Notes under the pieces: generated by a model
Database searches by the model: none
The model's input: only the letters and a program-made list of their open reading frames with translations
Told to the model about the DNA's origin: nothing
Program-made: the position numbers and the translations under genes
Assembly: GCA_035280505.1 (NCBI GenBank)
Contig: DATEFT010000635.1
Location: forward strand, 1,583-65,582
DNA: 64,000 nucleotides
Reading direction: 5' to 3'
Source: Blastocatellia bacterium
GTDB taxonomy: Bacteria; Acidobacteriota; Blastocatellia; RBC074
In this document: positions 7,539 through 52,738 of the stretch, in pieces
How positions within the stretch are numbered: position 1 is the first letter of the stretch
Layout of the letters: each line of letters starts with the position of its first letter

Positions 7539-7605
7539 CAAGAGACAGATGGATCGCCAAATAACTTGGTGGCACATAATTTCGCGTTCTCTGTTTTTAA
7601 GATTT

Positions 7606-15484: not shown

Positions 15485-18400
15485 ATGCTCAGAGATCTAG
15501 TAAGGGTATGCTACGTGTTCAGCCTGCTGCTCCTGACCGCCGGGCCCGGTCTGGCCCAGGCGCAGAGTGCTTCAGCCGATCTGACCGGTTCCGTCGCGGA
15601 CCCGTCGAAGGCGGTGGTCTCCGGGGCGACCGTCACGGCGGTCAATCTCGAGACCGGGTTGATTCGAGTCGCGACGTCCGACCTCACCGGCGTCTATCGC
15701 GTCTCGCTGCTGCCGCCCGGCTGCTACGAGTTGAAGGTTCGCGCCGAGGGCTTCAACGTCCAGGTCAAGCGCAACATCATGCTGACCGTCGGCCAGACGG
15801 CGCTGATCAATTTCGATCTGGCGCTCGGCGTCAAGACCGAGACCGAGGTGATCGAGACCAGCACGCCGGTGATCGAGATGGAACGGACCCATCAGTCATC
15901 GACCATCACCCAGAGGCCGATCGATAACCTGCCGCTCAATGGACGCAACTTCCTGGATTTCGCCCGGCTCACACCCGGCGTGGTCGAGGAGAGCCCGGCG
16001 GTGGCGAAGGTCCTGGTTCCTCAACTCCCGACCTCCGGGCTCTCGTTCGCCGGGCAGAATGGACGCTCCAACAGCATCCAGATCGACGGGGTCGACAATA
16101 ACGACATCACCAGCAACGGGGTGCGCCCGACCATCAGTCAGGAGGCGGTCCGGGAGTTCCAGATCAATCGTCATGGCTACAATGCCGAGTTCGGCCGCGC
16201 CAGCGGCGGAGTCATCAACATCGTCTCCAAGAGCGGCTCGAACGAACTGCACGGAAACCTCTACGACTATTTCCGCAACGAGCGGCTCGACGCGCGCAAC
16301 GTCTTCGCCTCGGCCTATCGGCAGGATCCGCCCTTCAAACGCAATCAGCCCGGTTTCACGCTCGGCGGTCCCCTGCAGCGAGATCGAACCTTCTTCTTCG
16401 CCTCATATGAAGGACTGATCAGGCGCGAATCGACGATCTCGACGATCCTGGCCGATCCCTGGATCCTCAATCCGACGACCGGCCAGCAGTCCCTGATCGC
16501 CCCGCTGCTCGGATCGACCAACCCGGATGACGTCCTCCTGGGTCAACAGTTGCAGGCGCTGCTGACGACCACGGCCAACAGCGCACCTCAATCGATCGGC
16601 CCGGCTCTCCAGCAGAACCGCGCCACCTATCACTACCTCGCCGCGTCGACCGGAATCTTTCCCGTCAACGAGACCTCGAACACGGGCAGCCTCCGGATCG
16701 ACCATGCTTTCAGCGAGCAGGACTATCTCTTCTCCAGATACAACCTGACCAACGACAGCCAGCGGAATATCGGGATCGGCGGCCTCTTCGCGCCCTCGGC
16801 CGGTTTCGACTTGGCGATCATCGATCACACCTACGTCCTCGGCGAGACGCATCTCTTCCGGGGCGGTTCGACCAACGAACTGCGGCTCCAACTGGTCCGC
16901 AATGCCTTCAACGCCAACACGGTCGATCCCTTCGGCCCGCATTACCAGATCGCCGGGATCGGCACCTTCGGGCGCGACTTCACCGCCCCCTCGAATCGCA
17001 CGCAATGGCGCGGGCAGGTGCTGGACAACTACAGCGTCAAATGGGGCCGCCATAATTTCAAACTGGGCGGCGATTTCAACCGCTATGCGTTCGAGGTCTA
17101 CAATCCGGTCTTCGGCGGCGGCAACATCGATTTCACCCAGTTGCCGATTCCGCTCGGCGCGGTCTTGAACGGCAAGACCCAAGCGCAATTGAACGCGGCG
17201 CTCTCCAGGTTGGGACGACCCGAACTCGGCTCGGTGCTCCTCCAACCGCTGACCACGGTGCAACAGATCAATTTCGGATTGCCCAGCGCGATCAACCAGG
17301 GCTACGGCAATCCCAACACGAACCTGAACGGCAGCATCCTGGGGCTCTATCTGCAGGACGGCCTGCAGATCAAACCCGATCTCTATTTGAGTTTCGGCCT
17401 TCGTTACGACTACGAACTGCAACCGGACGGCACGCCCCGCGACGGCAACAACCTGGGCCCGCGCTTCGGGTTCACCTATACCCCGTTCAAAGGCGGCAAG
17501 ACCTTGATCCGGGGCGGCGGCGGCCTCTACTATCAATCGCTCTACACGGCGACCGCCTTCATCTCCACGATCCTGGGCCGGGGACAGATCAGCAACGTCC
17601 TGGTCTCGGCCGATCCGCTGCTGACGCCGATCGCCGCCAATTCGCCTTGCGGTCAGGCGCTGGCGTCCGGCCTGCAGCCGTCCTTCTGTTTCTATCAGCA
17701 ATTGGTCGCCGGCGGCCGATTGAGTTTCTCCCCGACCTCGACGATCCCGGAGTCGGCCTATTCGGATCTGCTCGGACTGACGCGCCAAACGAGCGCCAAC
17801 CGCGTGATCCTCAGGCTGGACAACAATGCCGTCAACCCCTACAGCGTTCAGGGCAGCCTCGGCATCGACCATCAGTTCGGGCGCGACCTCTCGCTCTCGG
17901 TCAACTACCTGATCAATCGCGGCACCAAGTTGATCCGAACCCGCCAGGTCAATGCCCTGCCGAACACCGTGATGACCGACGCCTTCGGACGCCCGGCGCT
18001 GACCAACCGCGTCGACCCGACCAGGCTGGCGGATTACGTCTATGAGACGGCGGGGAGTTCGATCTATCACGGTCTGGCCGTCTCTCTCAACAAACGGTTG
18101 AGCCGGCATTACCAGTTGATCGGAGCCTATACCTTCGGCAAGGCCATCGACGACGTGACGGATCTCAACTTCGAACAGGGTCCGCAAGACCCGACCCGGA
18201 TCGGGGCCGACCGGAGTCTCTCGTCATTCAACGTCAGCCACCGGCTTTCGTTGACCTCGCTCTTCGACAGCCCGTTCCGGGGCGGCGCCGGGAGACCGCT
18301 CTACGATCGGATCCTCGCCGATTTCTATCTCTCGCCGATCCTGACCCTCCGGTCCGGTTTCCCCTTCAACATTCGGACCGGAATCGACGTGAATATGGAC

Positions 18401-18733
18401 AACAACAACAACGACCGGCCCTTCGCCGTCGGGAGAAATACCGGCCTCGGACCCGGATTCTTCACCACGGATCTGCGGATCGGCCGCCGGTTCCGGCTCA
18501 GCCCCGACAGCCCGCGCACCATCGAGGCCATCTTCGACACCTTCAACCTCTTCAATCGGGTCAACTATAAAGAGGTGAACGGCAACACCGGCGGCGTGCT
18601 CTATCTCGAACAGTTGGGAATCACCGATTTCCGCGTGACCGGCTGTGCCGACCGGGCCGCCAGCAGCTTCTGCGGCTTCACCTCCGCCTATGAACCGCGC
18701 GTCATTCAACTGGCGGTGAAACTCAATTTCTAA
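15485..18733 (+). CDS. TonB-dependent outer-membrane receptor, copy 4 (no partner gene downstream)
   Basis: 1082 aa. RBS TGGAGGTTAA-ATG. Signal peptide ...GPGLAQAQSASADLTG, plug motifs PLNGRNFLDF and FKRNQPGFTLGGP, terminal LKLNF. Confidence 0.92.
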   Translation: MLRDLVRVCYVFSLLLLTAGPGLAQAQSASADLTGSVADPSKAVVSGATVTAVNLETGLIRVATSDLTGVYRVSLLPPGCYELKVRAEGFNVQVKRNIMLTVGQTALINFDLALGVKTETEVIETSTPVIEMERTHQSSTITQRPIDNLPLNGRNFLDFARLTPGVVEESPAVAKVLVPQLPTSGLSFAGQNGRSNSIQIDGVDNNDITSNGVRPTISQEAVREFQINRHGYNAEFGRASGGVINIVSKSGSNELHGNLYDYFRNERLDARNVFASAYRQDPPFKRNQPGFTLGGPLQRDRTFFFASYEGLIRRESTISTILADPWILNPTTGQQSLIAPLLGSTNPDDVLLGQQLQALLTTTANSAPQSIGPALQQNRATYHYLAASTGIFPVNETSNTGSLRIDHAFSEQDYLFSRYNLTNDSQRNIGIGGLFAPSAGFDLAIIDHTYVLGETHLFRGGSTNELRLQLVRNAFNANTVDPFGPHYQIAGIGTFGRDFTAPSNRTQWRGQVLDNYSVKWGRHNFKLGGDFNRYAFEVYNPVFGGGNIDFTQLPIPLGAVLNGKTQAQLNAALSRLGRPELGSVLLQPLTTVQQINFGLPSAINQGYGNPNTNLNGSILGLYLQDGLQIKPDLYLSFGLRYDYELQPDGTPRDGNNLGPRFGFTYTPFKGGKTLIRGGGGLYYQSLYTATAFISTILGRGQISNVLVSADPLLTPIAANSPCGQALASGLQPSFCFYQQLVAGGRLSFSPTSTIPESAYSDLLGLTRQTSANRVILRLDNNAVNPYSVQGSLGIDHQFGRDLSLSVNYLINRGTKLIRTRQVNALPNTVMTDAFGRPALTNRVDPTRLADYVYETAGSSIYHGLAVSLNKRLSRHYQLIGAYTFGKAIDDVTDLNFEQGPQDPTRIGADRSLSSFNVSHRLSLTSLFDSPFRGGAGRPLYDRILADFYLSPILTLRSGFPFNIRTGIDVNMDNNNNDRPFAVGRNTGLGPGFFTTDLRIGRRFRLSPDSPRTIEAIFDTFNLFNRVNYKEVNGNTGGVLYLEQLGITDFRVTGCADRAASSFCGFTSAYEPRVIQLAVKLNF

Positions 18734-23453: not shown

Positions 23454-24464
23454 ATGAAAGTCTCTGCGATTGCGATTGCGATTGCGGTGTGTTTAGCGGT
23501 AAACACCAGGTCGCAAACAGCGTCGTTCGAGAATCAGGCTCTGGCCTTAGTGCAACGCACCCTGGCCTCTGACCTGGACGCGGAATTGCCCAAACTTCCG
23601 TTCCCGACCTGGTTCAGTCAACTGCTGGGCCCACAGGCGGGGGTGATTTGGCAATTGACCGAGTGCGGCGAACCGATCAAGGCCTCCACCGAGGAGGGGC
23701 CGGATCTGTGTGCCTGTGCCGAGGTCAACGCCAGCCTGCCGGACGGCCGCAAAGTGATCGTCGCGATCACCATCGGAACCTTCAAAAAGGGGATCACCGG
23801 CACCCCGGCCTTCTTTCATGCCGTCATCGAACGCAACGAACAGCTCTATGATGCCCCCCGGTTGCGCGATCTCCCGGGAATGCTCTCCATGCCGAAACCC
23901 GCCGCGATTCCGGCCGCCAACCGAGCAAGCAAACGAGCCGTCAAGCTGCCCATCATCCGAGCGGAACGAACCAAACTTCAGTTCCTGGTTCAGGCCGATC
24001 CGCTGCGTCTGGCGCTGCTGGCCGCCCCAAACTCCAACCTGCGGCCCGATGTGTCCGACCTGGAACAGACCCCTCCGATTCCGTTAAAGACCGCGCCGAC
24101 GCCCGCCAACGCGCCTCAACCGGTTCCGGCATCCGGCGACACCTCTCAAACGACGGCCAGCCTGACACCGGACACGCCATCGGACGAGCAACTGTTGGAC
24201 GGCAAAGCCATCACCAGAGTCAAACCGGTCTATCCGCCCAACGCCAAATTGATGAACGCGCTCGGAGAGGTCAGGGTGCGAATTACCATCTCGGAACAAG
24301 GAAAGGTCATCGAGGCCAAGGCGATCACCGGGCACATGGCCCTGCGCGGGGCGGCGGTTGAAGCGGCCTTCAGGTGGGTCTTCAAACCGACAACCCTCAA
24401 CGGCGCTCCGGTCAAGGTGCGGGGCATCTTGACCTTCGACTTCACTCACAACTCCCAATACTGA
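23454..24464 (+). CDS. Secreted TonB C-terminal-domain protein, partner of receptor copy 5
   Basis: GGAG RBS. MKVSAIAIAIAVCLAVNTRSQ signal-like segment. WQLTECGEP...DLCACAEVNASLPDGRKVIV...GTFKKG domain. TonB_C end (VKPVYPPNAKLMNALGEVRVRITISEQGKV...WVFKPTTLNGAPVKVRGILTFDF). Confidence 0.8.
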   Translation: MKVSAIAIAIAVCLAVNTRSQTASFENQALALVQRTLASDLDAELPKLPFPTWFSQLLGPQAGVIWQLTECGEPIKASTEEGPDLCACAEVNASLPDGRKVIVAITIGTFKKGITGTPAFFHAVIERNEQLYDAPRLRDLPGMLSMPKPAAIPAANRASKRAVKLPIIRAERTKLQFLVQADPLRLALLAAPNSNLRPDVSDLEQTPPIPLKTAPTPANAPQPVPASGDTSQTTASLTPDTPSDEQLLDGKAITRVKPVYPPNAKLMNALGEVRVRITISEQGKVIEAKAITGHMALRGAAVEAAFRWVFKPTTLNGAPVKVRGILTFDFTHNSQY

Positions 24465-31766: not shown

Positions 31767-32264
31767 CTATCTCTCTTTCCGCCCTCGCTTTCCGGTCTCC
31801 GGCTCGGCCGGCTGTGTGATGAATCGCTTGGTGACGGGCGATGAGAGAACGATGGAGGTCGTCGTCGTCCCGTAGGGCAACAATTTTTCGATGACATGTT
31901 CCAGGTGAGCAACTGAGGAGACGCGCACTTTCAGAATAAAAGAATCTCCGCCCGTCCCACGGTGACACTCTGTCACTTCAGCCAGATCTTTCATTAAATC
32001 GACGATCCGCGCCGAGACATTTCCGGTAATGCTCATCCGAATATAGGCCAGGATCGGATAGCCAATCTTTTCAAAATTCACCTCGGCGTGATAGCCGGTG
32101 ATGATCCCCGCGTCCTCCATCCGGCGAACCCGTTCGGTCACCGCCGGGATCGAAAGTCCGACCCGCCGTCCCAGCTCGGAAAAGGATATTCGCCCGTTAT
32201 CCTGCAACTCTTTCAGAATATGCCAGCCAATGTCGTCCAGCAATTTTTCATTTTCTAAAGCCAT
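31767..32264 (-). CDS. Lrp/AsnC-family transcriptional regulator
   Basis: 165 aa. HTH region [47 protein letters not shown] plus a RAM-type C-terminal domain. Confidence 0.9.
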
Positions 32265-32370: not shown

Positions 32371-33336
32371 ATGTCATTTGAGAAAACGCGATGGCTTTGG
32401 CACAACGGCAAACTGGTCTTGTGGAATGGAGCGCAGATCCACGCATCGGCCTTCGGGCTTCATTACGGCACCGGCGTCTTCGAGGGCATTCGCGCCTATC
32501 AGACGGAAGAGGGCCCGGCCATCTTCCGGCTGAAAGAGCATCTGGACCGCTTCGATGCCTCCGCCCGGGCCTATGGAATCGAGATCGGATATTCGCCCGA
32601 AGAGCTGAGCGAAGCGATCAGCGAAACCGTCATTCTCAACGACTTCCAAAACTGCTACATCCGGCCGATCGCCTATTACGACAGCGGCAGCCTGGGAATT
32701 CGTTCGACCTGCCCGGTCAGCGTCACCATCATCAGTTGGGAATGGCCCAATGCGCTGGATGCTGAAAAGAAGGCCCGGGGATTGCGCGTCACCATCTCGC
32801 CGTGGAGAAAATTCCATCACAGTATGATGCCTACTACGGCCAAATCGACCGGCCAGTATCTCAATTCGATCCTCGCCGTGCGCGACGCCGCCGCGCGCGG
32901 TTTTGACGAGGCGCTCCTGCTCGATATGGACGGCAATCTGGCCGAGGGCGCGGTCGAGAACATCTTTCTGGTGCGGAACGGCCAACTGCTGACGAATGAC
33001 GAGAGGTCTTCCATTCTGCTCGGGGTGACGCGGGCGTCGGTCATCGAAATCGCTCGGCATCTGGGCTACGAGGTTGAGATCCGCACGCTCACGCTCGATG
33101 ATCTTTGGAGCGCCGACGAAGCCTTCCTGACCGGGACGGCCGTCGAGATCGCGCCGATCCGCGAAGTCGACGGCCGGTCTATCGGGGACGGCCGGACGCG
33201 ACCGGTCACCGACCGGATTCAAGCGATCTTCTCCGGCATCGTCTCCGGAGGCGGCCGGTCATCGGAAGAATCGACTCTGCAACCCTATCGGCATTGGCTC
33301 TACCCGGTAGAGACCCTGGTCGGCGCGGCCGCGTAG
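32371..33336 (+). CDS. ilvE: Class IV (branched-chain amino acid) aminotransferase
   Basis: Start set at ATG 32371 (GGAGGAG RBS). [68 protein letters not shown]. Confidence 0.8.
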
Positions 33337-33378: not shown

Positions 33379-35352
33379 ATGACCATGCAATTCCGCAATG
33401 ACAACGCGATCGCCTGGCGCCCTTCCGCGGAGGTCGTCGCGCGCGCGCAATTGACCCGCTTTCTCTCATTCTGCGGGCTCCAAACCTTCGACGAACTCTA
33501 CCGGCGCTCGATCGAAGACGTCGCCTGGTTCACTGAACAGTTGGTGCGTTTTCTCGATCTGCAGTTCGACCGGCCCTATCGCCGGATTCTGGATCTCTCC
33601 CGGGGTCCGCAATGGCCCAGATGGTGCGTGGACGGGCAGCTCAATATCACCAGGAACTGCCTGGATCGCTGGATCGAGGAGGAGTCGACCGCGCAGACGC
33701 CCGCCGTGATCTGGGAGGGCGAAGCCGGGGAGACTCGTTCGCTCAACTATCAGGAGCTCTGGGACGAGGTCGGTCTCTGCGCCGCCGGACTTCGCGCCTG
33801 CGGATTGAAGAAAGGGGACGCGGTCGGACTGCATCTGCCGATGGTCCCGGAGACGGTGATCGCCCTGCTGGCGATCAATCGGATCGGCGGGATCGCCGTG
33901 CCGCTCTTCTCCGGTTACGGCCCGTCGGCGATCGAATCGCGGCTGAGCGACGTCGGCGCCAAAGCCGTCTTCACCTGCGACGGATTCTTCCGCCGGGGCA
34001 GAAAGGTCGCCGCCAAGACCGTCATCGACGAGGCCGTCGCCAAGCTGCCGGAGATCACGCGGGTCTTCGTCGTGCGTCGTTCGATGGAGACCGTTCCGAT
34101 CAAGGTCGGCCGTGACCTCTATTTCGACCAGCTCCTGGCCACCGGCGCGAAGAACGCCGGGCTCAGACAGGCGGAGATCACCGAGGCGGAAGACCCGCTG
34201 ATCGCCATCTACACCTCGGGAACCACCGGAAAACCCAAGGGAATCCTGCACACCCACTGCGGCTTTCCCGTCAAATCGGCTCAGGACATGTGTTTCGGCA
34301 CGGATGTCGGGCGCGGAACCCGCATCGCGTGGCTCACCGATCTGGGCTGGATGATGGGCCCCTGGCTGATCTATGGAGCGCTGATCCTGGGCGGCACGAT
34401 CGTGCTCTTCGACGGCGCGCCCGATTATCCCGGCCCCGACCGCATGTGGAATTTCTGCGAGCGGCATCAGGTGGAGGTGCTGGGCCTCTCGCCCTCGCTG
34501 GTCCGGGCGCTCGCGACTCACGACGACCATTGGACCACGCGGCATGATCTCTCCAAACTCCGAATCCTGGCCTCGACCGGCGAGCCCTGGAATCCAGATC
34601 CCTGGTGGTGGTTGTTCGAGAAGGTCGGAAAGGGCCGCGTGCCGATCATCAACTACTCCGGAGGCACCGAGATCTCGGGCGGCATCCTGATGAGCAACCC
34701 GCTGCTGCCGATCAAACCCTGTGCGTTCTCGGCCCCCTGTCCGGGAATTGCGGCCGACGTCGTCGATGAACACGGCGCTTCGGTGCACGGGGCGGTCGGA
34801 GAGCTGGCGATCCGCAGTCCGTGGATCGGTCAGGCTCGCGGGTTCTGGAAAGATCCGGAACGCTATTTGCGTACTTATTGGTCACGGTTTCCAGAGATCT
34901 GGATCCACGGCGATTGGGCCCAAATCGACGCCGAGGGCCACTGGCAGATTCTGGGACGCAGCGATGACACGCTCAAGATCGCCGGCAAGCGCGTGGGCCC
35001 CGCCGAAGTCGAGTCGATCCTGGTGGGCCATCAATCGGTGCTCGAAGCCGCCGCCATCGGTGTGCCCGATGAACTGAAGGGGACCGCGCTGGTCGTCTTC
35101 TGCGTGCCGGCGCCCGGGGCGGAGACCACGCCACAACTGGCGGAGACCTTGAAGGCCAGGGTGGCGGCCGAGTTGGGCAAACCGCTGCGGCCCGAAACAG
35201 TGCTCTTTGTTCCGGCGTTGCCCAAAACCCGGAATGCCAAAGTGATGCGCCGCGTCATCCGCGCGGCCTACCTGGGCGAAGAGATCGGCGACGTGACCGC
35301 GCTGGATAATCCGGCGGCGGTCGATGAAATAAAGAAGTCTAGAGAAGTCTAG
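33379..35352 (+). CDS. AMP-forming acyl-CoA synthetase (acetyl-CoA synthetase family)
   Basis: 657 aa. [12 protein letters not shown]...[13 protein letters not shown]-binding motif [12 protein letters not shown], ...[12 protein letters not shown]. The last 6 codons and the stop lie inside repeat 35333..35530. Confidence 0.8.
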
Positions 35353-35537: not shown

Positions 35538-36398
35538 ATGTCCATATCAACTGCACCCATCGAAGATTTTTTGACTTCCGACGTGGGGTTTGAGGAGATC
35601 AGCCTCTTACCGATCGATCATCCGGGCGCGCATGACCCGGAGTACCGGGTTCGGCGCGACTTCATCGCCCGGCTGGCCAAACAGTATCGCGAAGATCCGA
35701 AGCACGTTATTCCGGTGGTCGACTATACCAGGCAGGAGACGGCGATCTGGCGGCACGTTTATGACCAGTTGGAAGAGACCCAGCAACGCCGCGCCTGTTC
35801 GTTCTATCTGACCGCCAAACGCGCGCTCGGGATCTGCCGCAACCGAATTCCGCAGGTCGATGAGATGGCCGAAAAACTGCGCCGGATGACCGATTTTCGC
35901 CTCGCTCCGATCGAGGGCCTGGTCGAGACGCGCGCGTTCCTGAGCTGGCTGAGCAAACGCGTCATGCTCTGCACTCAATACATCCGGCATCACTCGCGAC
36001 CGGACTATACCCCCGAGCCGGATATCGTGCACGAGGCCATCGGCCACATCCCCAACTTCACGCATCCTGATTTCTGCGATTTTTCCCAGTTCATCGGCCA
36101 GGGAGCCGTGATCGCCGACGATCGACAGTTGGAGCAGTTGGGCCGGCTCTACTGGTTCACCGTCGAATTCGGCCTGATCGAAGAAGGTGACGAGATCAAG
36201 GCCTTCGGCGCGGGCCTGCTGTCGTCCTACAGCGAACTGGAACACGCGTTCGGCGAGACGGTCGAGCGCCGCCAATTCGACCTGGAAGAGGTCATCAACA
36301 CCCCATATGACTACTCGGAGATGCAACCGACGCTCTTCGTCATTCCGTCATATGGATCTTTGAAAGAAGTAACCAGAAAGTTCATCGAGAGCTTTTGA
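35538..36398 (+). CDS. phhA: Phenylalanine 4-monooxygenase (aromatic amino acid hydroxylase)
   Basis: 286 aa. [30 protein letters not shown] (iron ligands), [21 protein letters not shown]. Confidence 0.9.
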
Positions 36399-36430: not shown

Positions 36431-37522
36431 ATGAGCAGCGATCTAATAAAAATCAAGAAGATTCATCATCTCGAGTTTTATACCGGCAATGCCAAACAGG
36501 CCGATTACTATTATCGCCAGGCTTTCGGTTTTTCGCGCATCGCCTATGCCGGGCTGGAGACCGGCGACCGCGAACAGACCGCCTATGCGCTTCAGCAGGG
36601 TACGATCAAATTGGTCCTGACCACTCCGCACCACTCCGACTCGCACCTCGCCGATCATCTGCGCCGCCACGGCGACGGGGTCAAGGATATCGCCCTCGAA
36701 GTGGAAGACGCCGACCAGGCGTTCCAGTTGGCGGTCTCACGCGGAGCGATTCCGAATGTCGAGCCCCGGACCCTGAAAGACGATCATGGCTCGATCCGCC
36801 AAGCCAGCGTCAAAGTCTACGGCGACACGATCCATTCGTTCATCTCCAGGGCGAACTACCAGGGGCCCTTCCTGCCGGGCTTCATCGAATCCCGGGTCGA
36901 GGGCCGTTCGGCGGACCTGCTCCGGATCGACCATTTCGTCGCCAATGTCGAACTCGGCAAGATGGCCGAATGGGAGGAGTGGTATCAGCGGGTCTTCGGC
37001 TTCACGCGCTTTATGACCTTTGACGATAAGGACATTTCGACCGAGTATAGCGCGCTCAACAGCGTCGTCATGGCCAACGATTCGCGGAGCGTCAAGTTCC
37101 CGATCAACGAACCGGCGCCCGGTCGCCGCAAGAGCCAGATCCAGGAGTATCTGGAATGCTATGATGGCCCCGGAGTTCAGCACATCGCGCTGACGACGGC
37201 CGACATCGTCTCGACCGTCAGCCGGCTGCGCGCCAACGGCGTGGAGTTTCTGGAGGTGCCCGACACTTACTACGGATCGCTGACCACGCGGGTTGGAAGG
37301 ATCGACGAAGAGATCGAGCAGTTGCGCCAATTGAAGCTGCTGGTCGATCGCGACGAAGAAGGCTATCTGCTCCAGATCTTCACCAAGCCGGTCGAAGATC
37401 GCCCGACCCTCTTCTTCGAGATCATCCAGCGCAAGGGCTGCCAGGGCTTCGGCAAAGGCAATTTCAAGGCCCTCTTTGAAGCGATCGAGCGCGAGCAGGC
37501 GCGGCGCGGCAACCTGGTCTAA
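36431..37522 (+). CDS. hppD: 4-hydroxyphenylpyruvate dioxygenase
   Basis: 363 aa. [80 protein letters not shown]. Confidence 0.92.
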
Positions 37523-37715: not shown

Positions 37716-39020
37716 ATGAATATGCGAACAGAAAAATTTCTCTACCAGTCGGGCTTCGGCAATGAATTGGCGACCGAGGCCCTCCCCGGAGCCCTCCCCC
37801 AGGGTCAGAATTCGCCGCAAAAAGCGCCGTATGGCCTGTACGCCGAGCAATTCAGCGGCTCGCCCTTCACGGCGCCGCGGGCCGCGAATCGCCGTTCCTG
37901 GCTCTACCGGATCCGCCCCTCGGTCCTGCATCGACCGTTCAACCAGATATCCAATCTCCGGTTGCGGAGCGCCCCCTTCAACGAGGCGCCGCCTCCTCCC
38001 AACCAGTTGCGTTGGGATCCCCTGCCGGTGCCGGACGAACCGACCGATTTTATCGACGGTCTGACGACCATGGCCGGGTGCGGGGACGTGGGAATTCAGA
38101 CCGGGGTCGGAATTCAGATCTATGCCGCCAATATCCCCATGCAGGGCCGTTTCTTTTATAATGCTGACGGCGAGATGCTAATTGTGCCTGAACTCGGGAG
38201 GTTGACCATCCAGACCGAACTCGGGTGGCTGGGAGTAGCGCCCGGTGAAATCTGCGTCTTGCCGCGAGGACTGAAATTTCGTGTTGAACTGCCGGACGGG
38301 TCTGCGCGCGGGTATCTCTGCGAAAATTATGGCGCGCATTTCAAGTTACCGGAACTGGGGCCGATCGGTGCCAACGGATTGGCCAATCCCAGACATTTTC
38401 TGGTGCCGATTGCGGCGTATGATGATCAAGAAGGTGATTTTCGTCTGATCGCCAAATTCCAGGGCAACCTGTGGGAGGCCGCGATCGGCCATTCACCGCT
38501 CGACGTCGTGGCCTGGCACGGCAACTACGCGCCGTACAAGTATGACCTGGCCGATTTCAACCCGATCAATTCCGTAGGTTTCGATCATCCGGATCCTTCG
38601 ATCTTCACCGTGCTGACCTCACCCTCAGAGACGCTCGGGATGGCGAATGTGGACTTTGTGATCTTTCCGCCCCGCTGGGTGGTGGCGGAACACACCTTCC
38701 GCCCGCCATATTTCCATCGAAACGTGATGAGCGAATTTATGGGATTGATCTTCGGTCAATACGATGCGAAGGCCGAAGGCTTTCTGCCGGGCGGCGCCAG
38801 CCTGCACAACTGCATGTCGGGCCACGGCCCGGACGCCGAGACCTTCGAGCGGGCCAGCCAGGCGGAACTCAAACCGCAGCGCTACGACAACACGCTGGCC
38901 TTCATGTTCGAGACCCGGTACGTCATGCGACCGACCAGCTTCGCCCTGGAGACGACGGCCCGGCAAAAAGATTATGATGCGTGCTGGCAGGGGCTGAAGA
39001 AGAATTTCTCGGCCTGGTGA
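37716..39020 (+). CDS. hmgA: Homogentisate 1,2-dioxygenase
   Basis: Start set at ATG 37716 (or 37722): [55 protein letters not shown]. The upstream part of the ORF-track entry is repeat DNA. Confidence 0.92.
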
Positions 39021-39049: not shown

Positions 39050-39934
39050 ATGAACCCGATAATTCGTGACTTGTTGACAGGTTTGATCGATTACGCCGGT
39101 CTGTTCCCGCCGGCCACGCTCGATATGGCTTCGGCGACCCGCAATTTCGCCAAGTATAGCCTGGGGCCCGACGCGCCCTGGCTCGGGCGATTCGTGATCC
39201 CGGTCGAGCGGCTGGGTGAGTACGAACAGGCCGTGAAGGGTCTGGAGAAGAGCGAGCAGCCATGGCGGCTGAGCGCGCTGAGCAGCGTCAAGCTGGAGAG
39301 AGATCTCGGGAAGATCGCCGAGTTCAACGAGCGTCATACGGACGACGGGGTCCTCATCGACACGATCGAGATCAAGGCCATGGGCAGCACGGAGATCGAA
39401 TCGGCGATGGGATCGATCCCCGGCACCCTGACTCCATATTTCGAAATCTCGATGGCCGGCGATCCGATCGACCTGATCAAGGCGATCGCGGCCACCGGCG
39501 CGCGGGCCAAAGTGCGGGCCGGCGGCGTCTCGGTCGAGTCTTTTCCGCCGCCCTTCAATCTGGCCCGGTTCATCAAGAGCTGCGCCGATGAAGACGTCGC
39601 CTTCAAGGCCACGGCGGGACTGCATCACGCGCTGCGCTCGATCAACAAACTGACCGCCGAACCGGAGAGCCCCCGGGCATTGATGCATGGATTTTTGAAT
39701 CTCTTTCTGGCCGCCGCCTTCGCCCAGGTCGGAGTGGAGCGGGAGTGGCTGGTCGAATTGCTCGAAGAGCGATCATTGGAAGCTTTTCAGTTGGAGGAAG
39801 ACAGCGTACACTGGCGCGGACACTTGGTCGTCAGGTCTCACGTGAGAAACTCGCGAAGGCTCTTCGCCGTCGCCTTCGGGTCCTGCTCGTTTGAAGAACC
39901 TGTCGGCGAATTAAGAAAACTCGGGTTGCTGTAA
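39050..39934 (+). CDS. Conserved-looking hypothetical protein embedded between hmgA and fahA
   Basis: 294 aa. 29 nt after the hmgA stop and 17 nt before the fahA start, same strand. I could assign no family motif; notable block KVRAGGVSVESFPPPFNLARFIKSCADEDVAFKATAGLHHAL. Confidence 0.7.
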   Translation: MNPIIRDLLTGLIDYAGLFPPATLDMASATRNFAKYSLGPDAPWLGRFVIPVERLGEYEQAVKGLEKSEQPWRLSALSSVKLERDLGKIAEFNERHTDDGVLIDTIEIKAMGSTEIESAMGSIPGTLTPYFEISMAGDPIDLIKAIAATGARAKVRAGGVSVESFPPPFNLARFIKSCADEDVAFKATAGLHHALRSINKLTAEPESPRALMHGFLNLFLAAAFAQVGVEREWLVELLEERSLEAFQLEEDSVHWRGHLVVRSHVRNSRRLFAVAFGSCSFEEPVGELRKLGLL

Positions 39935-39951
39935 ACATCACGTGCTCAATC

Positions 39952-41280
39952 ATGGCCTATTCGATTAACGAAACTCATGATCCGAATCTGAAAAGCTGGG
40001 TCGAGTCGGCAAACGATCCTACCGGCGATTTTCCCATCCAGAACCTGCCTTTCGGGATCTTCACCCGACCGGAGAGCGAAGAGTTACCCTGCATCGGAGT
40101 GGCGATCGGAGACCAGATTCTGGATCTGGCCGCCGTGGCCGACGAGTTCTGGAGTCTCGACTTTACGGATGACATCGGCGATGCCTGCTCTTACGAATCG
40201 CTGGATATGATGATGACGCTGGAGCCGGAAAGCATGTCGGAGCTTCGCCGGCGGGTCAGCAAGCTGCTGCGTGCCGACAATTTCAGCGATGAGCGTTATA
40301 TCGTCGAAGATTTTCTGATCCCGATGGATGAGGTCGAGATGCTGCTCCCGATCAATATCGGGGACTACACCGACTTTTACGCCTCGATCTTTCACGCCAC
40401 CAACGTCGGCAAGATGTTCCGTCCCGACAATCCGTTGATGCCGAACTACAAATGGGTCCCGATCGGTTATCACGGGCGGGCCTCTTCCGTCATGCTGAGC
40501 GGGACGCCGGTCTACCGGCCCACCGGCCAGACCAAAGACGACCAGGCGGAGACGCCGTCCGTCGGCCCGAGCCGAATGTTGGACTATGAGTTGGAGGTCG
40601 GCATTCTGATCGGCTCCGGCAATCGACCGGGAGCAACGATCCGGATCACGGAGGCTGAAGACCACATCTTCGGGCTCTGCCTGGTCAACGACTGGTCGGC
40701 CCGCGACCTCCAACGATGGGAGTACCAACCCCTGGGACCGTTTCTCTCCAAGAGCTTCGCCACGACGATCTCGCCCTGGATCATTACCATGGAGGCGTTG
40801 GCGCCTTTTCGGGCCCCGGCTTTTAAACGTCCGGCCGGAGACCCGGACCCGCTGCCCTATCTCGATTCGCTGCGGAACCGCGAGCGCGGAGGCTTCGACA
40901 TCAAGCTGGAGGTCTACCTCTCGACGCCGGAGATGCGGAACCGGCACCTGGCGCCGCACCGTCTGACCGGCGACAGCAACACCAAGGATCTCTACTGGAC
41001 CTTCGCCCAGATGGTCACCCACCACGCCGGCAACGGCTGCAACCTGCGGCCGGGCGACCTGATCGCCAGCGGCACCGTCTCGGGCGCGACCAAAGAGAGT
41101 CTGGGCTGCCTGCTGGAGCTGACCCAGCGCGGAACCGAGCCGATCCAACTGCCGACCGGCGAAGTGCGACGTTTTCTGCAGGACGAAGACGAAGTGATCT
41201 TACGCGGTTACTGCGAACGCGACGGATTCAGACGGATCGGTTTCGGCGAATGCCTCGGCCGAATCGGCTTACCAAAGTAG
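39952..41280 (+). CDS. fahA: Fumarylacetoacetase
   Basis: 442 aa. FPIQNLPFGIF N-terminal domain, YTDFYAS, GYHGRASSV, DYELEVG, SARDLQRWEYQPLGPF, GDLIASGTVSG. Confidence 0.92.
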   Translation: MAYSINETHDPNLKSWVESANDPTGDFPIQNLPFGIFTRPESEELPCIGVAIGDQILDLAAVADEFWSLDFTDDIGDACSYESLDMMMTLEPESMSELRRRVSKLLRADNFSDERYIVEDFLIPMDEVEMLLPINIGDYTDFYASIFHATNVGKMFRPDNPLMPNYKWVPIGYHGRASSVMLSGTPVYRPTGQTKDDQAETPSVGPSRMLDYELEVGILIGSGNRPGATIRITEAEDHIFGLCLVNDWSARDLQRWEYQPLGPFLSKSFATTISPWIITMEALAPFRAPAFKRPAGDPDPLPYLDSLRNRERGGFDIKLEVYLSTPEMRNRHLAPHRLTGDSNTKDLYWTFAQMVTHHAGNGCNLRPGDLIASGTVSGATKESLGCLLELTQRGTEPIQLPTGEVRRFLQDEDEVILRGYCERDGFRRIGFGECLGRIGLPK

Positions 41281-41468: not shown

Positions 41469-42209
41469 CTATAATCGCCCCTGAAGCAGCGCCGGCAAGA
41501 CCTTGCCGATCTCATCGTTCAGAACTACATCCGCCATGCCGTCGAGCGGCGTCGAGGTGCGGTTGATGATGATCAGCACCGCTCCGATCTGTTTGGCGAT
41601 CACCGGCAGCGAGGCCGCCGGATGCACGACCAGCGACGAACCCACCGCCAGAAAGACGTCACAGTCCGCGCAAGCCGCCAGGGCCAATTGCATGGCCCGC
41701 GCCGGCATGGCCTGACCGAACGAGATCGTGGCCGGTTTGAGCAGCCCGCCGCACAGTTCGCATTCGGGCGCCTCGTCGCCGGCTTCGATCAGCGCGACGG
41801 CGTCGTCCATCGAGATTCGCCGCTGACAATCCAGACACTCAACCTTCGTCGTCGTGCCGTGCAGTTCGATCACATTCTTCTGCCCGGCTTTCTGGTGCAG
41901 CCCATCGATGTTCTGCGTGATCAGGGCCCGCAACCGGCCCTGCCGCTCGATTTCGACAAAGGCCGCGTGACCGGCGTTCGGCTCGGCGTCCCGCATGGGA
42001 GGCCAGATCGCCACTTTCTGCCGCCAGTATTCAATGCGCCCCCCACGGCTGTTCAGGAACTCGTCATATTCGATCGTGCGGTTATTCGCCCAGATTCCCT
42101 GCGGGCTGCGGAAATCGGGAATCCCCGACTCCGTTGAGATACCGGCGCCCGAAAATCCGACGATCCGTTTTGATTGAGCGATAAATTCGACGGCTTCTGA
42201 GAATTTCAT
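41469..42209 (-). CDS. cobB: NAD-dependent protein deacylase (Sir2 family)
   Basis: 246 aa. GAGISTESGIPDFRSPQGIW, QNIDGLH, HG, Zn-module CLDCQRR...CELCGG, VGSSLVVHPA. Confidence 0.88.
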   Translation of the reverse strand: MKFSEAVEFIAQSKRIVGFSGAGISTESGIPDFRSPQGIWANNRTIEYDEFLNSRGGRIEYWRQKVAIWPPMRDAEPNAGHAAFVEIERQGRLRALITQNIDGLHQKAGQKNVIELHGTTTKVECLDCQRRISMDDAVALIEAGDEAPECELCGGLLKPATISFGQAMPARAMQLALAACADCDVFLAVGSSLVVHPAASLPVIAKQIGAVLIIINRTSTPLDGMADVVLNDEIGKVLPALLQGRL

Positions 42210-42315: not shown

Positions 42316-44247
42316 ATGAAAAAAAAACCGGCCCTCATTGGTTTATTCATTTTCTGGTGTTTGTCAACCATGTCTTTTCGAAATACCCTGCCAGCCCATT
42401 CGCAACAAGTTCCACCAACCGAGATCGAGACTCCTGACTCGCGCGATTCGCATTCATATGCCAACCCGGGGCAGGTCCGCGTGCGCCACGTGGATCTCGA
42501 ACTGGAAGTGCAGTTTGAGCGCCGAGTCCTGAAAGGCTCGGCGACCCTCTCGATTGAACGCGCGCCGAATGGCGCCGACCCGCTCCGGCTCGATACCCGT
42601 GATCTGAAGATCGTCAAAGCCGAGGCGTCGAGCGACGGAAATAATTTCACGCCGGCCCAGTTCACTCTCGGCGAGGCGGATAAGATTCTCGGCTCCGCAC
42701 TGACCATTCAACTGCCGGCGAACGCGACCCGGGTCCGAATCGAATACGAGACCAGTCCGCATGCCTCCGGCGTCCAATGGCTCGAACCGGCGCAGACGGC
42801 CGGCAAAAAACATCCGTACGTCTTCACTCAGTCGGAGGCGATTCATGCCCGAAGCTGGATCCCCCTGCAGGATTCGCCCGGCGTGCGCGTCACCTACTCG
42901 GCCCGCATTCTCACGCCGAAAGGATTGCGCGCGGTGATGAGCGCGGAGTCGGTCGCGTTCAAAGGATCGCCGGGTTCGGGTCAAAGCGGTTACGCCTTTA
43001 AGATGGAGCAGGCGATCCCCTCGTACTTGATTGCGCTGGCAGCCGGCGACCTGGCCTACAAATCGCTCGGGCCGCGAACCGGGGTCTACACCGAACCGGC
43101 CATGCTCGAAAAAGCCGCGCACGAACTGGCCGATACCGAAAAGATGGTCGCGGCCACCGAGAAGCTCTACGGTCCTTACCGGTGGGGGCGTTACGACGTC
43201 CTCGTGTTACCGCCCAGTTTCCCGATCGGCGGCATGGAGAACCCGCGGTTGACGTTCGCCACGCCGACCATCCTGGCCGGAGATCGAAGCCTGGTCTCGC
43301 TGATCGCGCATGAACTGGCCCATTCGTGGTCCGGCAACCTGGTCACCAACGCCACCTGGCGCGATTTCTGGCTCAATGAAGGATTCACGACCTATCTCGA
43401 ACGGCGAATCATCGAAGCGATCTACGGCCGTCCACGCGAAGAGATGGAGGCGACGCTCGGACGGCAGACACTGGGCAGAGAGTTAGCCTCGAATGATGCC
43501 CGCGACCAGATTCTGCATATCGACCTCCAGGGCCGCGATCCGGATGATGGTTTCACCGAGATCCCCTATGAGAAGGGCGCGCTCTTCCTGCGGCATCTGG
43601 AAGAGACCTATGGCCGCGAACGTTTCGATCGATTCCTGAAAGGCTACTTCGAGCATTACTCCTTCCAGAGCATCACCACGGCGACCTTTATCGAGTACCT
43701 GCAGAAGAATCTGCTCGATTCCGACGCTCAACTCGCGGCGAAGGTCCCGGTCGAGGAGTGGATCTTCAAACCGGGCCTGCCGCCTGGAGCGCCGCAACCC
43801 AAATCCGACGCTTTCGCCAAAATCGAGGAGCAGGCGCAAGGTTGGCTCGACGGAAAGATTCCGGCGGCCAAGTTGAATACTAAAGACTGGTCAACCCAGC
43901 AATGGCTGCATTTCCTGCGCTTCCTGCCGCAGCAGTTGAATCCGCAGAAGATGCAGGAACTCGACCAGGCTTTCAACCTGACGAAAGCCGGCAACGCCGA
44001 GATCGCCCATCAATGGCTCCTGATCTCGATTCGTAATCAATACCATCCGGCCGATCGGCGCCTCGAAGAGTACCTGACCTCCATCGGCCGGCAAAAACTG
44101 ATCAAGCCGTTGTATGAAGAGCTGGTCAAGACGCCCGAAGGTAAGGAACGGGCCCTGAGCATCTATCAAAAAGCCCGCGCCGGTTATCATCCGATCGCGC
44201 AAACCTCGGTCGACAAGATCGTTAAAGGTAGAACCAGCGGCGACTGA
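42316..44247 (+). CDS. M1-family zinc aminopeptidase (leukotriene A4 hydrolase-like), secreted
   Basis: 643 aa. Signal peptide. GGMENP, HELAHSWSGNLVTNATWRDFWLNEGFTTYLE (HExxH-N18-E), and a Leuk-A4-hydrolase-like C-terminal helical domain. Confidence 0.88.
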   Translation: MKKKPALIGLFIFWCLSTMSFRNTLPAHSQQVPPTEIETPDSRDSHSYANPGQVRVRHVDLELEVQFERRVLKGSATLSIERAPNGADPLRLDTRDLKIVKAEASSDGNNFTPAQFTLGEADKILGSALTIQLPANATRVRIEYETSPHASGVQWLEPAQTAGKKHPYVFTQSEAIHARSWIPLQDSPGVRVTYSARILTPKGLRAVMSAESVAFKGSPGSGQSGYAFKMEQAIPSYLIALAAGDLAYKSLGPRTGVYTEPAMLEKAAHELADTEKMVAATEKLYGPYRWGRYDVLVLPPSFPIGGMENPRLTFATPTILAGDRSLVSLIAHELAHSWSGNLVTNATWRDFWLNEGFTTYLERRIIEAIYGRPREEMEATLGRQTLGRELASNDARDQILHIDLQGRDPDDGFTEIPYEKGALFLRHLEETYGRERFDRFLKGYFEHYSFQSITTATFIEYLQKNLLDSDAQLAAKVPVEEWIFKPGLPPGAPQPKSDAFAKIEEQAQGWLDGKIPAAKLNTKDWSTQQWLHFLRFLPQQLNPQKMQELDQAFNLTKAGNAEIAHQWLLISIRNQYHPADRRLEEYLTSIGRQKLIKPLYEELVKTPEGKERALSIYQKARAGYHPIAQTSVDKIVKGRTSGD

Positions 44248-50460: not shown

Positions 50461-51666
50461 TCACGCCAACATCAGATCTGCCGCAATCGGGTCATGATCC
50501 GAGATCTGCCCGCCCTGCCCGTTCTTCAATCCCGGGATACTTTGCGGTCTCCGGCTGGCCTGGCCGCTCACCGAGTCCACGATCTCGTCCTGGCCCAGCG
50601 GCCTGACTCTGCGGCCGACGATCCAATCGAGGCGAAAATCGAGATGGTAGTCGAACCGCGCCATCCGGGACTCGAAAGCATCGGCCAGAAATCTCGGCAA
50701 GGCCGAACGGTCCTCGAACCCACGCATCGGCACGATGCAGGTGGTCGCCGGGCAATTGAACCCCTGCTCGGTGAATCCGTGACGGCGGAGAACGTCGAAC
50801 AACGGTTCCTGGAGTTGCGGATTGGCAAAGAGGTGGGTCAAACGATCCTTGTCGGCGAATGAGAGCCGCAAGGCGGCACGCAAGGTGCGCCACCAGCCGC
50901 CCCGTGGAGTGGCGTTGGTGTTGAAATCTCCGGCAATGACGGCGGCCTCCTGGCCGTGCAGGGCCTCGACCAGCGCCTGGATCTGCCGGGCCCGGCACCC
51001 GGGTTTATTCCGGACCTCCAGATGGGTGCTGGCAAAGGCCAGCGTCCCGCCCCCCACCGAGATCTCGGCGGCGACCGCCTGCCGCGCGCCGATACGTTGC
51101 TCCTGATGCGCGAAATGATCGAAACAGACCGGGAGTTTGAGAATCCGCGGATTGCGAAGCTCATAACGCGAGAGGATGGCGTTTCCCTGGAGCGCGATCG
51201 TATTTTCGCCCGGAATCTTCAAATCCTCGCCATAGCCTTTCGAGAACTCCAGATAGGCCGGCGCAAACAGGCAGTGCATGCCGAGGGCGGCGCCCAGTTC
51301 GCGGGCGATAAACCGCTGCCCCGAGCGGTTCATCCCGACGTCGGCTTCATTGAGCGAGATCAGGTCGGCTTCGCGCAGAATCGGATGCCGGCGAAAGACC
51401 TCGATGATCTCGTCCAGATATCGCCCTTTCTCGATGTTCCAATGGGCGAGGCGGACGAAATCACGGATCCGCGGGCGCGCCTCGGGAACCGGGAAGAGCC
51501 TCGGCTGTTCCAGGAGGTCGGCCAGATATTCACGATGACGCCGATAGGCCGCCGATTCCTGCAGTTCGCCCAGGGTCTTGAAGCCCCTCAACTCGGCAAT
51601 CAGGGCCTGATGGTCGGTGTATTCAGTCGACATGGGACGGCCCCTATTTTCGGTGCGACCTGGCAT
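50461..51666 (-). CDS. Endonuclease/exonuclease/phosphatase (EEP) family protein
   Basis: 401 aa. [16 protein letters not shown]-terminal ISDHDPI. An alternative ATG at 51633 would remove the overlap with the upstream gene. Confidence 0.7.
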
Positions 51667-52738
51667 ATTCGGTCTGCAGCAGATTCATCATCTCGCCGCG
51701 TCGATCGTACAGACGCTTCAACTGGCGCGGCGCGCGCTTCGCCAGGGCGTAGGCGGTGATCAAGGGCAAGGCCACCGTCGAGTCGAGATAGCAGACGACC
51801 GTGCCCGGCAACTGGTCGGGATCGATCTTCCCCCAACTGACGGCCTCGCTCGGAGTGGCCCCCGACAACCCGCCGGTATCCGGGCGCGCGTCCGTCAACT
51901 GCAGAAAATAGTCGTGCCCCTTCTCTTCGATTCCGAGCACCTCCTGAATCTGGGGTTCGGTCTGGAGGGCGAAATTTTTGGGGCTGCCGCCGCCGCAGAT
52001 GAAAATCCCCGATTTTCCGCCCGTGCGTTTGGCGTTGAGAACGATCGCCGCCGTCTCGTTCACGTCCGCCGAAGGATTGAGCCGGAGCTTTCCTCCCTGC
52101 AACTCCATCGCCGCCACGTTCATCCCGATCGAACTATCGCCGGGCGACGAGGTGTAGACCGGGACCCCGTAATGATAGGCCGCGGCCAGCAAGGATTGAC
52201 TCTTCAGACCGAGCACGCGCTCGCGCTCGGCGATATATTTGCCGCAGAGATAGTGGAATTCGGCGGTTGACATCTCATGCTGGAACTCCTCGGCCCGGAT
52301 GATCTCCCGAAAAAAGGCATCGGTCGAGAGCAGAACTTCATAATCGAAGAAGATGTCGTAGATCCGGACCACCCCCTCTTCGCGCAGCACGACATCGCTG
52401 ATCTGGTGGCTGCCGCGATGCATCGAGAGGCCCAGTCCGAAATGCGCATCGTGATAGAGATTGGCGCCGGTCGAGATGATCCAGTCGACGAATCCCGCCT
52501 CGATCAAGGGAATGAGGACCGAGATGCCCAATCCGGCCGGAGTCAAAGCGCCGGTGAGCGTGAGCCCGACCGTCACCTCATCCTGCAGCATCCGGTCGCT
52601 GAACAGTTGGGCGCCTTCGCGCAACCGCCCGGCGTTATAAGCCTGAAAATTGCTTTCGATCAATTGCACGACCGTCGTCTCTTTGGTGATCGGCGTCGGA
52701 GCAATGCGGCGGCCTTGCAAATACTTGCTCTGATTCAT
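51644..52738 (-). CDS. Deoxyhypusine synthase-like (homospermidine synthase-like) protein
   Basis: 364 aa. [47 protein letters not shown]. Family call from memory of DHS motifs. Confidence 0.65.

Follow-up and report, generated by a model that had tools for sequence, protein, structure and literature searches.

A 64,000-nucleotide stretch of a Blastocatellia genome (GenBank assembly GCA_035280505.1, contig DATEFT010000635.1, positions 1,583 to 65,582; hereafter the window) was found to carry a 294-aa gene, here designated gene X, between the genes for homogentisate 1,2-dioxygenase (hmgA) and fumarylacetoacetase (fahA). X is very probably an enzyme of the homogentisate pathway whose function is tied to that of FahA. 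With less assurance, comparison of sequences indicates that X is probably the maleylacetoacetate isomerase of these organisms, a cis–trans isomerase unrelated to the glutathione S-transferases (GSTs) that would work with a cysteine of its own. A wider proposal, which we favour by a slightly narrower measure, is that the X family accounts for the maleylacetoacetate isomerase activity, independent of glutathione, that was reported for Gram-positive bacteria decades ago, and represents a third, structurally unrelated solution to this step. It would be a new superfamily of triosephosphate isomerase (TIM) barrels needing no thiol cofactor, acting through its own cysteine (possibly with a metal), probably coupled physically to FahA, and at work in thousands of soil and aquatic bacteria from nine or more phyla, Streptomyces and Priestia megaterium among them. 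What would be new is the unrelated, unannotated family in this slot, the reaction and the pathway position being known.

Gene X occupies positions 39050 to 39934 on the forward strand and starts with ATG. The stop codon of hmgA (TGA) ends at 39020, leaving a 29-nt gap that includes AGGAG, and the stop codon of X (TAA) ends at 39934, 17 nt before the fahA ATG at 39952. An earlier sequence-only reading of the window had given the length, position and both gaps of this gene, and they were found to be exact by open reading frame (ORF) and codon positions. The database gene call (P0001, 287 aa) begins at a TTG seven codons later than 39050, and alignments of homologs support the ATG instead. X is a real gene, as thousands of homologs align with it along the full length of X. 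The operon has the order aminotransferase–acyl-CoA ligase–phhA–hppD–hmgA–X–fahA, with all genes colinear on the forward strand, and no terminator-like sites were seen between its genes. The identities of phhA, hppD, hmgA and fahA and their colinearity had been recognised in the same reading, and curated models scoring above their cut-offs confirmed them (Table 1). As X is the only gene in this operon left without an assignment and lies between hmgA and fahA in pathway order, it is a candidate for the isomerase. The isomerase is also the sole unfilled step in several compact clusters.

X matched no family in Pfam or NCBIfam at E ≤ 0.1, and no PDB sequence was matched either by the single protein or by the family profile (0 at E ≤ 10 for the profile). 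A word-indexed search returned at least 7,984 relatives, every one of them labelled "hypothetical protein". An exhaustive profile search gave 5,422 clusters at 50% identity with E ≤ 1e-3, including 2,305 with E ≤ 1e-30, and a genome scan located relatives in at least 598 species-level genomes.

The surroundings of X were compared in 80 loci from a genome collection, each taken with 8 kb on either side and originating from Acidobacteriota, Gemmatimonadota, Bacteroidota, Planctomycetota (Phycisphaerales and a Brocadiaceae), Latescibacteria, Ignavibacteria and Chloroflexota. Three contigs end right after X, so that 77 loci were informative. Counts based on tblastn placed a full-length fahA on the same strand no more than 150 nt downstream of X in 59 of the 77, within 1.5 kb after X in eight more and further off in two, a total of 69 loci with fahA. 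These fahA partners share 39–76% identity with the fumarylacetoacetase of the window over the full length, and the surroundings of the X–fahA pair differ by lineage, consisting of unrelated housekeeping genes (RuvC, signal peptidase, SET domain, ApaG etc.). An hmgA gene, classic or divergent, was directly upstream of X in 24 loci, namely classic hmgA in 19 Acidobacteriota loci and a divergent short HmgA-like cupin in five others (26–27% identity; HgmA_N, Cupin_2 and HgmA_C by Pfam). X–fahA pairs with no hmgA within 8 kb occur in several lineages, Gemmatimonadota and Bacteroidota among them; wherever hmgA falls inside the locus it directly flanks X or the X–fahA pair, in every lineage.

Annotated replicons added three phyla, Bacillota, Actinomycetota and Cyanobacteriota, to the X–fahA linkage. 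Plasmids of Priestia (Bacillus) megaterium carry hppD–X–fahA–aminotransferase–hmgA with an adjoining Lrp/AsnC regulator, a Pseudonocardia replicon carries hmgA–X–fahA, a Streptomyces plasmid hmgA–X–fahA–CoA transferase A/B, and pNit of Rhodococcus rhodochrous an HmgA-like cupin followed by X–fahA. In the cyanobacterium Kovacikia, the X–fahA pair lies back to back with hppD, a short gene resembling hmgA and a gene for an ACS-like ligase. The RefSeq label for X is "hypothetical protein" on every annotated replicon; its orthologs include WP_223269024.1 (P. megaterium), WP_331721661.1 (Streptomyces) and WP_197520027.1 (Pseudonocardia). In three of the replicons, all Gram-positive, the stop of X and the start of fahA share a 4-nt overlap, an arrangement suggestive of translational coupling. 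Two types of HmgA accompany X, a classic one of about 430 aa and a short cupin of about 385–400 aa with 25–30% identity to the classic form; X therefore tracks the pathway and not one lineage. Overall, X co-occurs with fahA and hmgA far beyond the expectation from shared ancestry, in at least nine phyla. One database protein (P0237, 512 aa) consists of X fused through a linker of about 90 aa to the N-terminal domain of fumarylacetoacetase (FAA_hydrolase_N); this single case may be a gene-call read-through and is weak evidence for the X–fahA tie.

Some further features of these loci were recorded. The short HmgA-like cupin occupies the hmgA slot at L029:6810-7970 and L055:6760-7935, and also in L034, L048, L063, L082–L084, L088 and L089. 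Its hosts are Gram-positives, a cyanobacterium, a Brocadiaceae metagenome-assembled genome (MAG) and some Acidobacteriota, and it is entered in RefSeq as 'homogentisate 1,2-dioxygenase' in part of the records and, for Rhodococcus, as 'cupin domain-containing protein'. In the Phycisphaerales loci L031, L036, L062, L067 and L075 no fahA follows X, and X is preceded by genes for a PD40 β-propeller protein (c9) and an acetyl-xylan-esterase-like hydrolase (c51); the X family may have a second context or function in these organisms. Recurrent small neighbours of X (clusters c6, c49, c114, c63 and others), considered as possible GSTs, proved to be SET-domain, Uma2, thioredoxin-like, RuvC, signal peptidase and similar proteins. 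Rce1-like genes recur a few genes downstream of X–fahA in Gemmatimonadota (cluster c12, e.g. L041:9639-10382), and a fusion of an Rce1-like CAAX protease domain with X (P0169, 545 aa) was uninformative.

The isomerase of this pathway, MaiA, is a zeta-class GST, and the sequence-only reading had reported that no GST-like gene is present in the window. This held: no GST domain was detected by Pfam in 20 ORFs of compatible size or in any of the large ORFs of the window, and phmmer with a genuine maiA, that of Sphingobium RAC03, gave no match at E ≤ 10 among all six-frame ORFs of 60 aa or more. The same probe, for which the self-match (E 9e-147) served as the positive control, detected no maiA- or GST-like ORF in 84 X-bearing loci, about 1.1 Mb in total, a scan that did not include L089 and L090. 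The canonical proteobacterial locus of Sphingobium RAC03, taken as a control, has the order hmgA–fahA–maiA and is devoid of X. Among plasmid and chromid records, maiA (E ≤ 1e-30) occurred on 227, with all genera listed being proteobacterial, and X on 22 (Streptomyces, Priestia, Pseudonocardia, Nonomuraea, Rhodococcus and Kovacikia), none of them proteobacterial; at the replicon level maiA and X are taxonomically disjoint. Bacillota and Actinomycetota make no glutathione, and for this reason a GST-type isomerase could not work there. Co-occurrence of the family with hmgA and fahA in genomes lacking maiA had been suggested as a check, and in the scanned loci such co-occurrence without maiA was observed. 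Together with the occurrence of X in glutathione-free phyla, it argues, as far as sequence comparison can, for the earlier suggestion of a non-GST isomerase.

Residue conservation was counted in 354 distinct members of the X family. E132, R156 and K186 are conserved in all 354, D14, E107, K154, H192, H193, P20 and P21 in 353, and C279, the single conserved cysteine of X, in 352, followed by N217, R269 and G277 (351 each) and P284 (350). The conserved residues stay invariant in a wide alignment with distant members from Bacillota, Actinomycetota and cyanobacteria. The best-conserved part of the family is the block KVRAGG...FKATAGLHHAL (residues 154–195, nt 39509–39634), the end of which had caught attention as distinctive before any homologs were collected. 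D14, E107 (nt 39368–39370) and E132 (nt 39443–39445) make up an invariant acidic triad, possibly a metal site.

Modelling by AlphaFold2 with a diverse alignment gave a mean predicted local distance difference test score (pLDDT) of 97.6 and a predicted template-modelling score (pTM) of 0.93, with all residues at or above 90. This model superseded an earlier one from a shallow alignment (53–72% identity), which had a pLDDT of 78.9 and two disordered segments. Predicted strands at residues 13–15, 45–51, 72–77, 101–109, 128–133, 152–156, 185–188 and 273–278 alternate with helices, and two extra β-hairpins are present at 197–212 and 252–261. The predicted fold class of X is a (β/α)8 TIM barrel and not a GST fold, in keeping with the absence from X of any GST signature that the sequence-only reading had noted and with the AlphaFold/Foldseek check that it had advised. 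Either model returned generic TIM-barrel matches only when submitted to Foldseek. Against the PDB, the top 50 were mostly TIM barrels with probability up to 1.00, the best template-modelling score (TM) being 0.42 and the best E 4e-3 at 8–16% identity; the weakly matched barrels included KDO8P synthase, TrpA, IGPS, DERA, IMPDH, TIM, aldo-keto reductases and GMP reductase. No known TIM-barrel superfamily was matched with TM > 0.5 or by a significant profile, and with the best values at TM 0.42 and E 4e-3 no known superfamily can be named for X.

Most conserved residues of X are in, or just past the C-terminal end of, a predicted β-strand, and the C-terminal ends of the strands are where the active sites of TIM barrels occur. 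Because conserved polar and charged residues sit at these positions, X appears to be an enzyme rather than a scaffold, and from the barrel topology the conserved residues are expected to cluster in one pocket.

Maleylacetoacetate is an enone that has two carboxylates and a β-diketone on its flanks. In MaiA, in the thiol-dependent maleylpyruvate isomerases and in maleate isomerase a thiolate adds to the double bond, rotation follows and the thiolate is eliminated. Given C279, five basic residues, a His-His pair and an Asp/Glu/Glu triad in X, an enzyme-thiol, possibly metal-assisted, cofactor-free mechanism is proposed. X would be a cytoplasmic (β/α)8-barrel enzyme converting 4-maleylacetoacetate, the product of HmgA, into 4-fumarylacetoacetate, the substrate of FahA, and would be a non-homologous replacement for MaiA. 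Cys279, at the end of β8, would take the role of MaiA's glutathione thiolate and attack C2 of the enone; rotation about C2–C3 would follow, after which Cys279 would leave. R47, K154, R156, K186 and R269 would be the binding residues for both carboxylates and would also stabilise the enolate, and H192/H193 would serve as acid/base. A divalent metal chelating the 4,6-diketo group, as in FahA, may be held by the D14/E107/E132 triad. The close spacing of X and fahA, which often overlap, points to co-translation and perhaps to hand-over of the reactive intermediate. The enzyme had earlier been described as possibly thiol-independent, which is probably not quite accurate, since C279 (352/354) suggests thiol chemistry borne by the enzyme itself.

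Several observations weigh against the assignment of X as the isomerase. Linkage alone does not tell an isomerase apart from an enzyme that acts differently on this metabolite or on a neighbouring one, and fahA was nowhere nearby in 8 of the 77 informative loci, mostly those of Phycisphaerales. Ala replaces C279 in 2 of the 354 members. The absence of maiA refers to 8 kb on either side of X in each locus and not to the whole genomes of the source organism or the MAGs. Maleylacetoacetate also isomerises non-enzymatically with free thiols, although slowly (as in GSTZ1-deficient mice), and a missing maiA alone does not therefore demand a replacement enzyme. Lastly, Streptomyces sp. NBC_00727, the X locus of which has no hmgA, carries a DinB-type 'maleylpyruvate isomerase N-terminal domain' gene (L090:4346-5002) about 1 kb upstream of X–fahA, and seven similar plasmids (H41–H47) probably share it. 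This gene could be the real thiol-dependent isomerase there, or its presence could be a coincidence, the domain being abundant in Streptomyces.

The same genomic linkage would be seen if X acted on maleylacetoacetate or fumarylacetoacetate in another manner, as an ene-reductase or hydratase supplying FahA with succinylacetoacetate or a hydrated product, or as a keto-enol tautomerase preparing the FahA substrate. Liver fumarylacetoacetase accepts several 2,4- and 3,5-diketo acids, and the TIM barrels weakly matched by Foldseek are often flavin- or phosphate-binding (IMPDH, GMP reductase, aldo-keto reductases). Such chemistry seems unlikely, since no nucleotide- or flavin-binding family signature was found in X with Pfam and NCBIfam, FahA is a clear equivalog of true fumarylacetoacetase, and the conserved cysteine suits nucleophilic isomerisation better; moreover, the cis-to-trans problem would remain or extra cofactors would be needed. 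X–fahA might otherwise belong to a different pathway, such as another diketo-acid route, its place in this homogentisate operon being secondary; a genuine maiA, or a gene for an isomerase dependent on mycothiol or bacillithiol, would then lie elsewhere. The pairs lacking hmgA within 8 kb, the DinB-type gene of the one Streptomyces group and the restriction of the maiA scan to loci are compatible with this. It is nonetheless distinctly unlikely, as hmgA, when in the locus, is always a direct flank of X or X–fahA, the fahA partners are full-length relatives of the window fumarylacetoacetase, and no genes of an alternative pathway recur beside X.

Another arrangement, which we regard as quite improbable, is that FahA hydrolyses the cis compound without prior isomerisation, giving maleate and acetoacetate, and that X then converts the maleate, as a maleate cis–trans isomerase or a maleate hydratase. 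An enzyme-borne cysteine nucleophile is the known mechanism of maleate isomerase, and X neighbours fahA rather than hmgA. A precedent exists in the gentisate pathway, where some bacteria hydrolyse maleylpyruvate directly, without isomerisation (PMC11603403). However, X precedes fahA and, in loci with hmgA, stands between the two genes, as pathway order would place an isomerase; FahA scores well above the curated fumarylacetoacetase cut-off, and the five conserved basic residues exceed the need of a small C4 diacid. The overlap of X with fahA suggests stoichiometric co-production and would also suit a non-catalytic role of X as an accessory or assembly factor of FahA (or HmgA). HmgX, encoded in the tyrosine-degradation cluster of Aspergillus fumigatus, is a precedent for such a role (PMC3203155). 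This is the least probable of the alternatives: nine polar or charged residues at strand ends, each present in at least 352 of the 354 members, are the signature of an active site and not of an interface, and HmgX goes with hppD, whereas X keeps to fahA also in loci with neither hppD nor hmgA close by. In addition, FahA works alone in proteobacteria and animals.

An isomerase role of X would bear on a central route of metabolism. The homogentisate pathway is the central aerobic route for the breakdown of phenylalanine and tyrosine, and its isomerase step has a known gene only in glutathione producers. Glutathione-independent maleylacetoacetate and maleylpyruvate isomerase activities in Gram-positives, including B. 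megaterium, were reportedly described by Hagedorn, Chapman and co-workers (J Bacteriol 1985), which we take as a lead and not as evidence. A full-text literature search found no paper that names the X family or gives a glutathione-independent maleylacetoacetate isomerase a gene, and the maleylacetoacetate isomerase step is not discussed in the GapMind catabolism paper. If X is the isomerase, an annotation hole would be filled in thousands of genomes (Acidobacteriota, Gemmatimonadota, Bacteroidota, Planctomycetota, Actinomycetota, Bacillota and Cyanobacteriota), the orphan activity would receive a gene, and metabolic models that score tyrosine catabolism as incomplete would be corrected. It would also be a clean case of non-homologous enzyme replacement, by a new barrel family with possibly new enzyme-thiol, perhaps metal-assisted, chemistry.

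The IlvE-type aminotransferase of the operon probably performs the step from tyrosine to 4-hydroxyphenylpyruvate. The divergently transcribed Lrp/AsnC-family protein is probably the regulator of the operon; Terriglobales loci (cluster c7) and the Priestia megaterium plasmid likewise have an Lrp/AsnC regulator beside the cluster. The ACS-family ligase is conserved at the head of the operon in Blastocatellia. Its identification as acetoacetyl-CoA synthetase was not confirmed (428 bits against a cut-off of 639 for acetoacetate-CoA ligase), and it scored 574 bits against a cut-off of 657 on the acetate-CoA ligase model; its place in a tyrosine-catabolic operon suggests a divergent acetoacetate-activating enzyme.

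Table 1 Gene X, its conserved motifs and the genes of the homogentisate operon in the window.
Feature	Position	Strand	Basis or note
Gene X, candidate glutathione-independent maleylacetoacetate isomerase, (β/α)8-barrel family without annotation	39050..39934	+	ORF, homologs, AlphaFold, fahA linkage
N-terminal motif of X, D14-Y-A-G-x-F-P-P-A (β1 and next loop)	39089..39115	+	Conservation
Core of X, K154-x-R156-x-G-G ... F-K186-x-T-A-G-L-H192-H193 (β6, β7, post-β7 loop)	39509..39634	+	Proposed carboxylate-binding and acid/base residues
Motif F-G-S-C279-S-F-x-E-P at the C-terminal end of β8 of X; C279 (39884-39886), proposed catalytic nucleophile	39875..39901	+	Conservation
Lrp/AsnC-family regulator, divergently transcribed	31767..32264	-	PF13412, PF13404, PF01037
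IlvE-type class IV aminotransferase, first operon gene	32371..33336	+	NF005146 355 bits (cut-off 279); PF01063
ACS-family acyl-CoA ligase	33379..35352	+	Below cut-offs of acetate- and acetoacetate-CoA ligase models; syntenic in related loci
phhA, phenylalanine 4-monooxygenase	35538..36398	+	PF00351; NF008877 265 bits (cut-off 247)
hppD, 4-hydroxyphenylpyruvate dioxygenase	36431..37522	+	TIGR01263 463 bits (cut-off 277)
hmgA, homogentisate 1,2-dioxygenase (makes maleylacetoacetate)	about 37725..39020	+	TIGR01015 704 bits (cut-off 511); PF20510, PF04209
fahA, fumarylacetoacetase (consumes the trans isomer)	39952..41280	+	TIGR01266 530 bits (cut-off 375)

Genes for a Sir2-family deacylase (41469–42209, reverse strand), 3' of fahA, and for an M1 or leukotriene-A4-hydrolase-like peptidase (42316–44247, forward strand) follow the operon, and both are syntenic with it in the closest Blastocatellia loci (L001–L004). 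Elsewhere in the window, positions 325–24464 hold five tandem copies of a two-gene receptor/TonB module, an unusual local amplification. The receptor, of about 1,082–1,093 aa, is TonB-dependent-receptor-like and combines CarboxypepD_reg with an outer-membrane β-barrel; the first copy (325–2529) is 734 aa long and has the β-barrel domain only. Partners of about 325–345 aa with a TonB C-terminal domain are encoded at 2672–3649, 7549–8553, 13970–15007 and 23454–24464, in a scan that included no gene after the 15485–18733 copy. A deoxyhypusine synthase-like gene (PF01916) is located at 51644–52738 on the reverse strand; homologs of this enzyme are known in bacteria.

X can be compared with several known systems. 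HmgX of A. fumigatus (AFUA_2G04210) is likewise an uncharacterised protein encoded in a tyrosine-degradation cluster; it has no conserved domains, and the pathway cannot do without it, the HppD step being the one that requires it (PMC3203155). By description and context the two are set apart, HmgX (about 256 aa) being hppD-paired and restricted to ascomycetes and X fahA-paired and bacterial. With generic TIM barrels such as KDO8P synthase, TrpA, IGPS, DERA and IMPDH, X is predicted to share the eight β/α units and the conserved residues at strand C-termini; it differs from them in the low TM and identity values given above and in its two extra β-hairpins. Metal-dependent KDO8P synthases also use a Cys/His/Glu/Asp set.

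The mycothiol- or L-cysteine-dependent maleylpyruvate isomerases (DinB/MDMPI) are a non-GST answer to the analogous step of the gentisate pathway in Gram-positives lacking glutathione, and they show that such an isomerisation has evolved on more than one occasion. Their fold is the all-helical one of DinB, and they need a low-molecular-weight thiol cofactor and act on maleylpyruvate, whereas X has no MDMPI_N or DinB match in Pfam and is predicted to be an α/β barrel and not a four-helix bundle. Maleate cis–trans isomerase, which needs no cofactor and acts on an activated C=C bond with an active-site cysteine, is the closest analogue of the working proposed for X. It belongs to the Asp/Glu racemase superfamily and has a two-domain fold with a catalytic pair of cysteines, in contrast to the single predicted barrel of X, with one conserved cysteine and no family match. 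Its substrate is a C4 diacid, compared with the C8 diketo-diacid proposed for X, and we know of no linkage of this enzyme to fahA.

MaiA/GSTZ1 (EC 5.2.1.2) is the enzyme that X would replace, with the same proposed reaction, the same place in the pathway and in hmgA/fahA operons, and a thiolate nucleophile in both proposed mechanisms. In sequence and predicted fold the two are unrelated, MaiA/GSTZ1 being a thioredoxin-like and helical protein of about 210 aa, and X a predicted (β/α)8 barrel of 294 aa with no match to GST_N or GST_C. The thiol would be contributed by glutathione in MaiA and by a cysteine of the enzyme in X, and the taxonomic ranges of the two are complementary.

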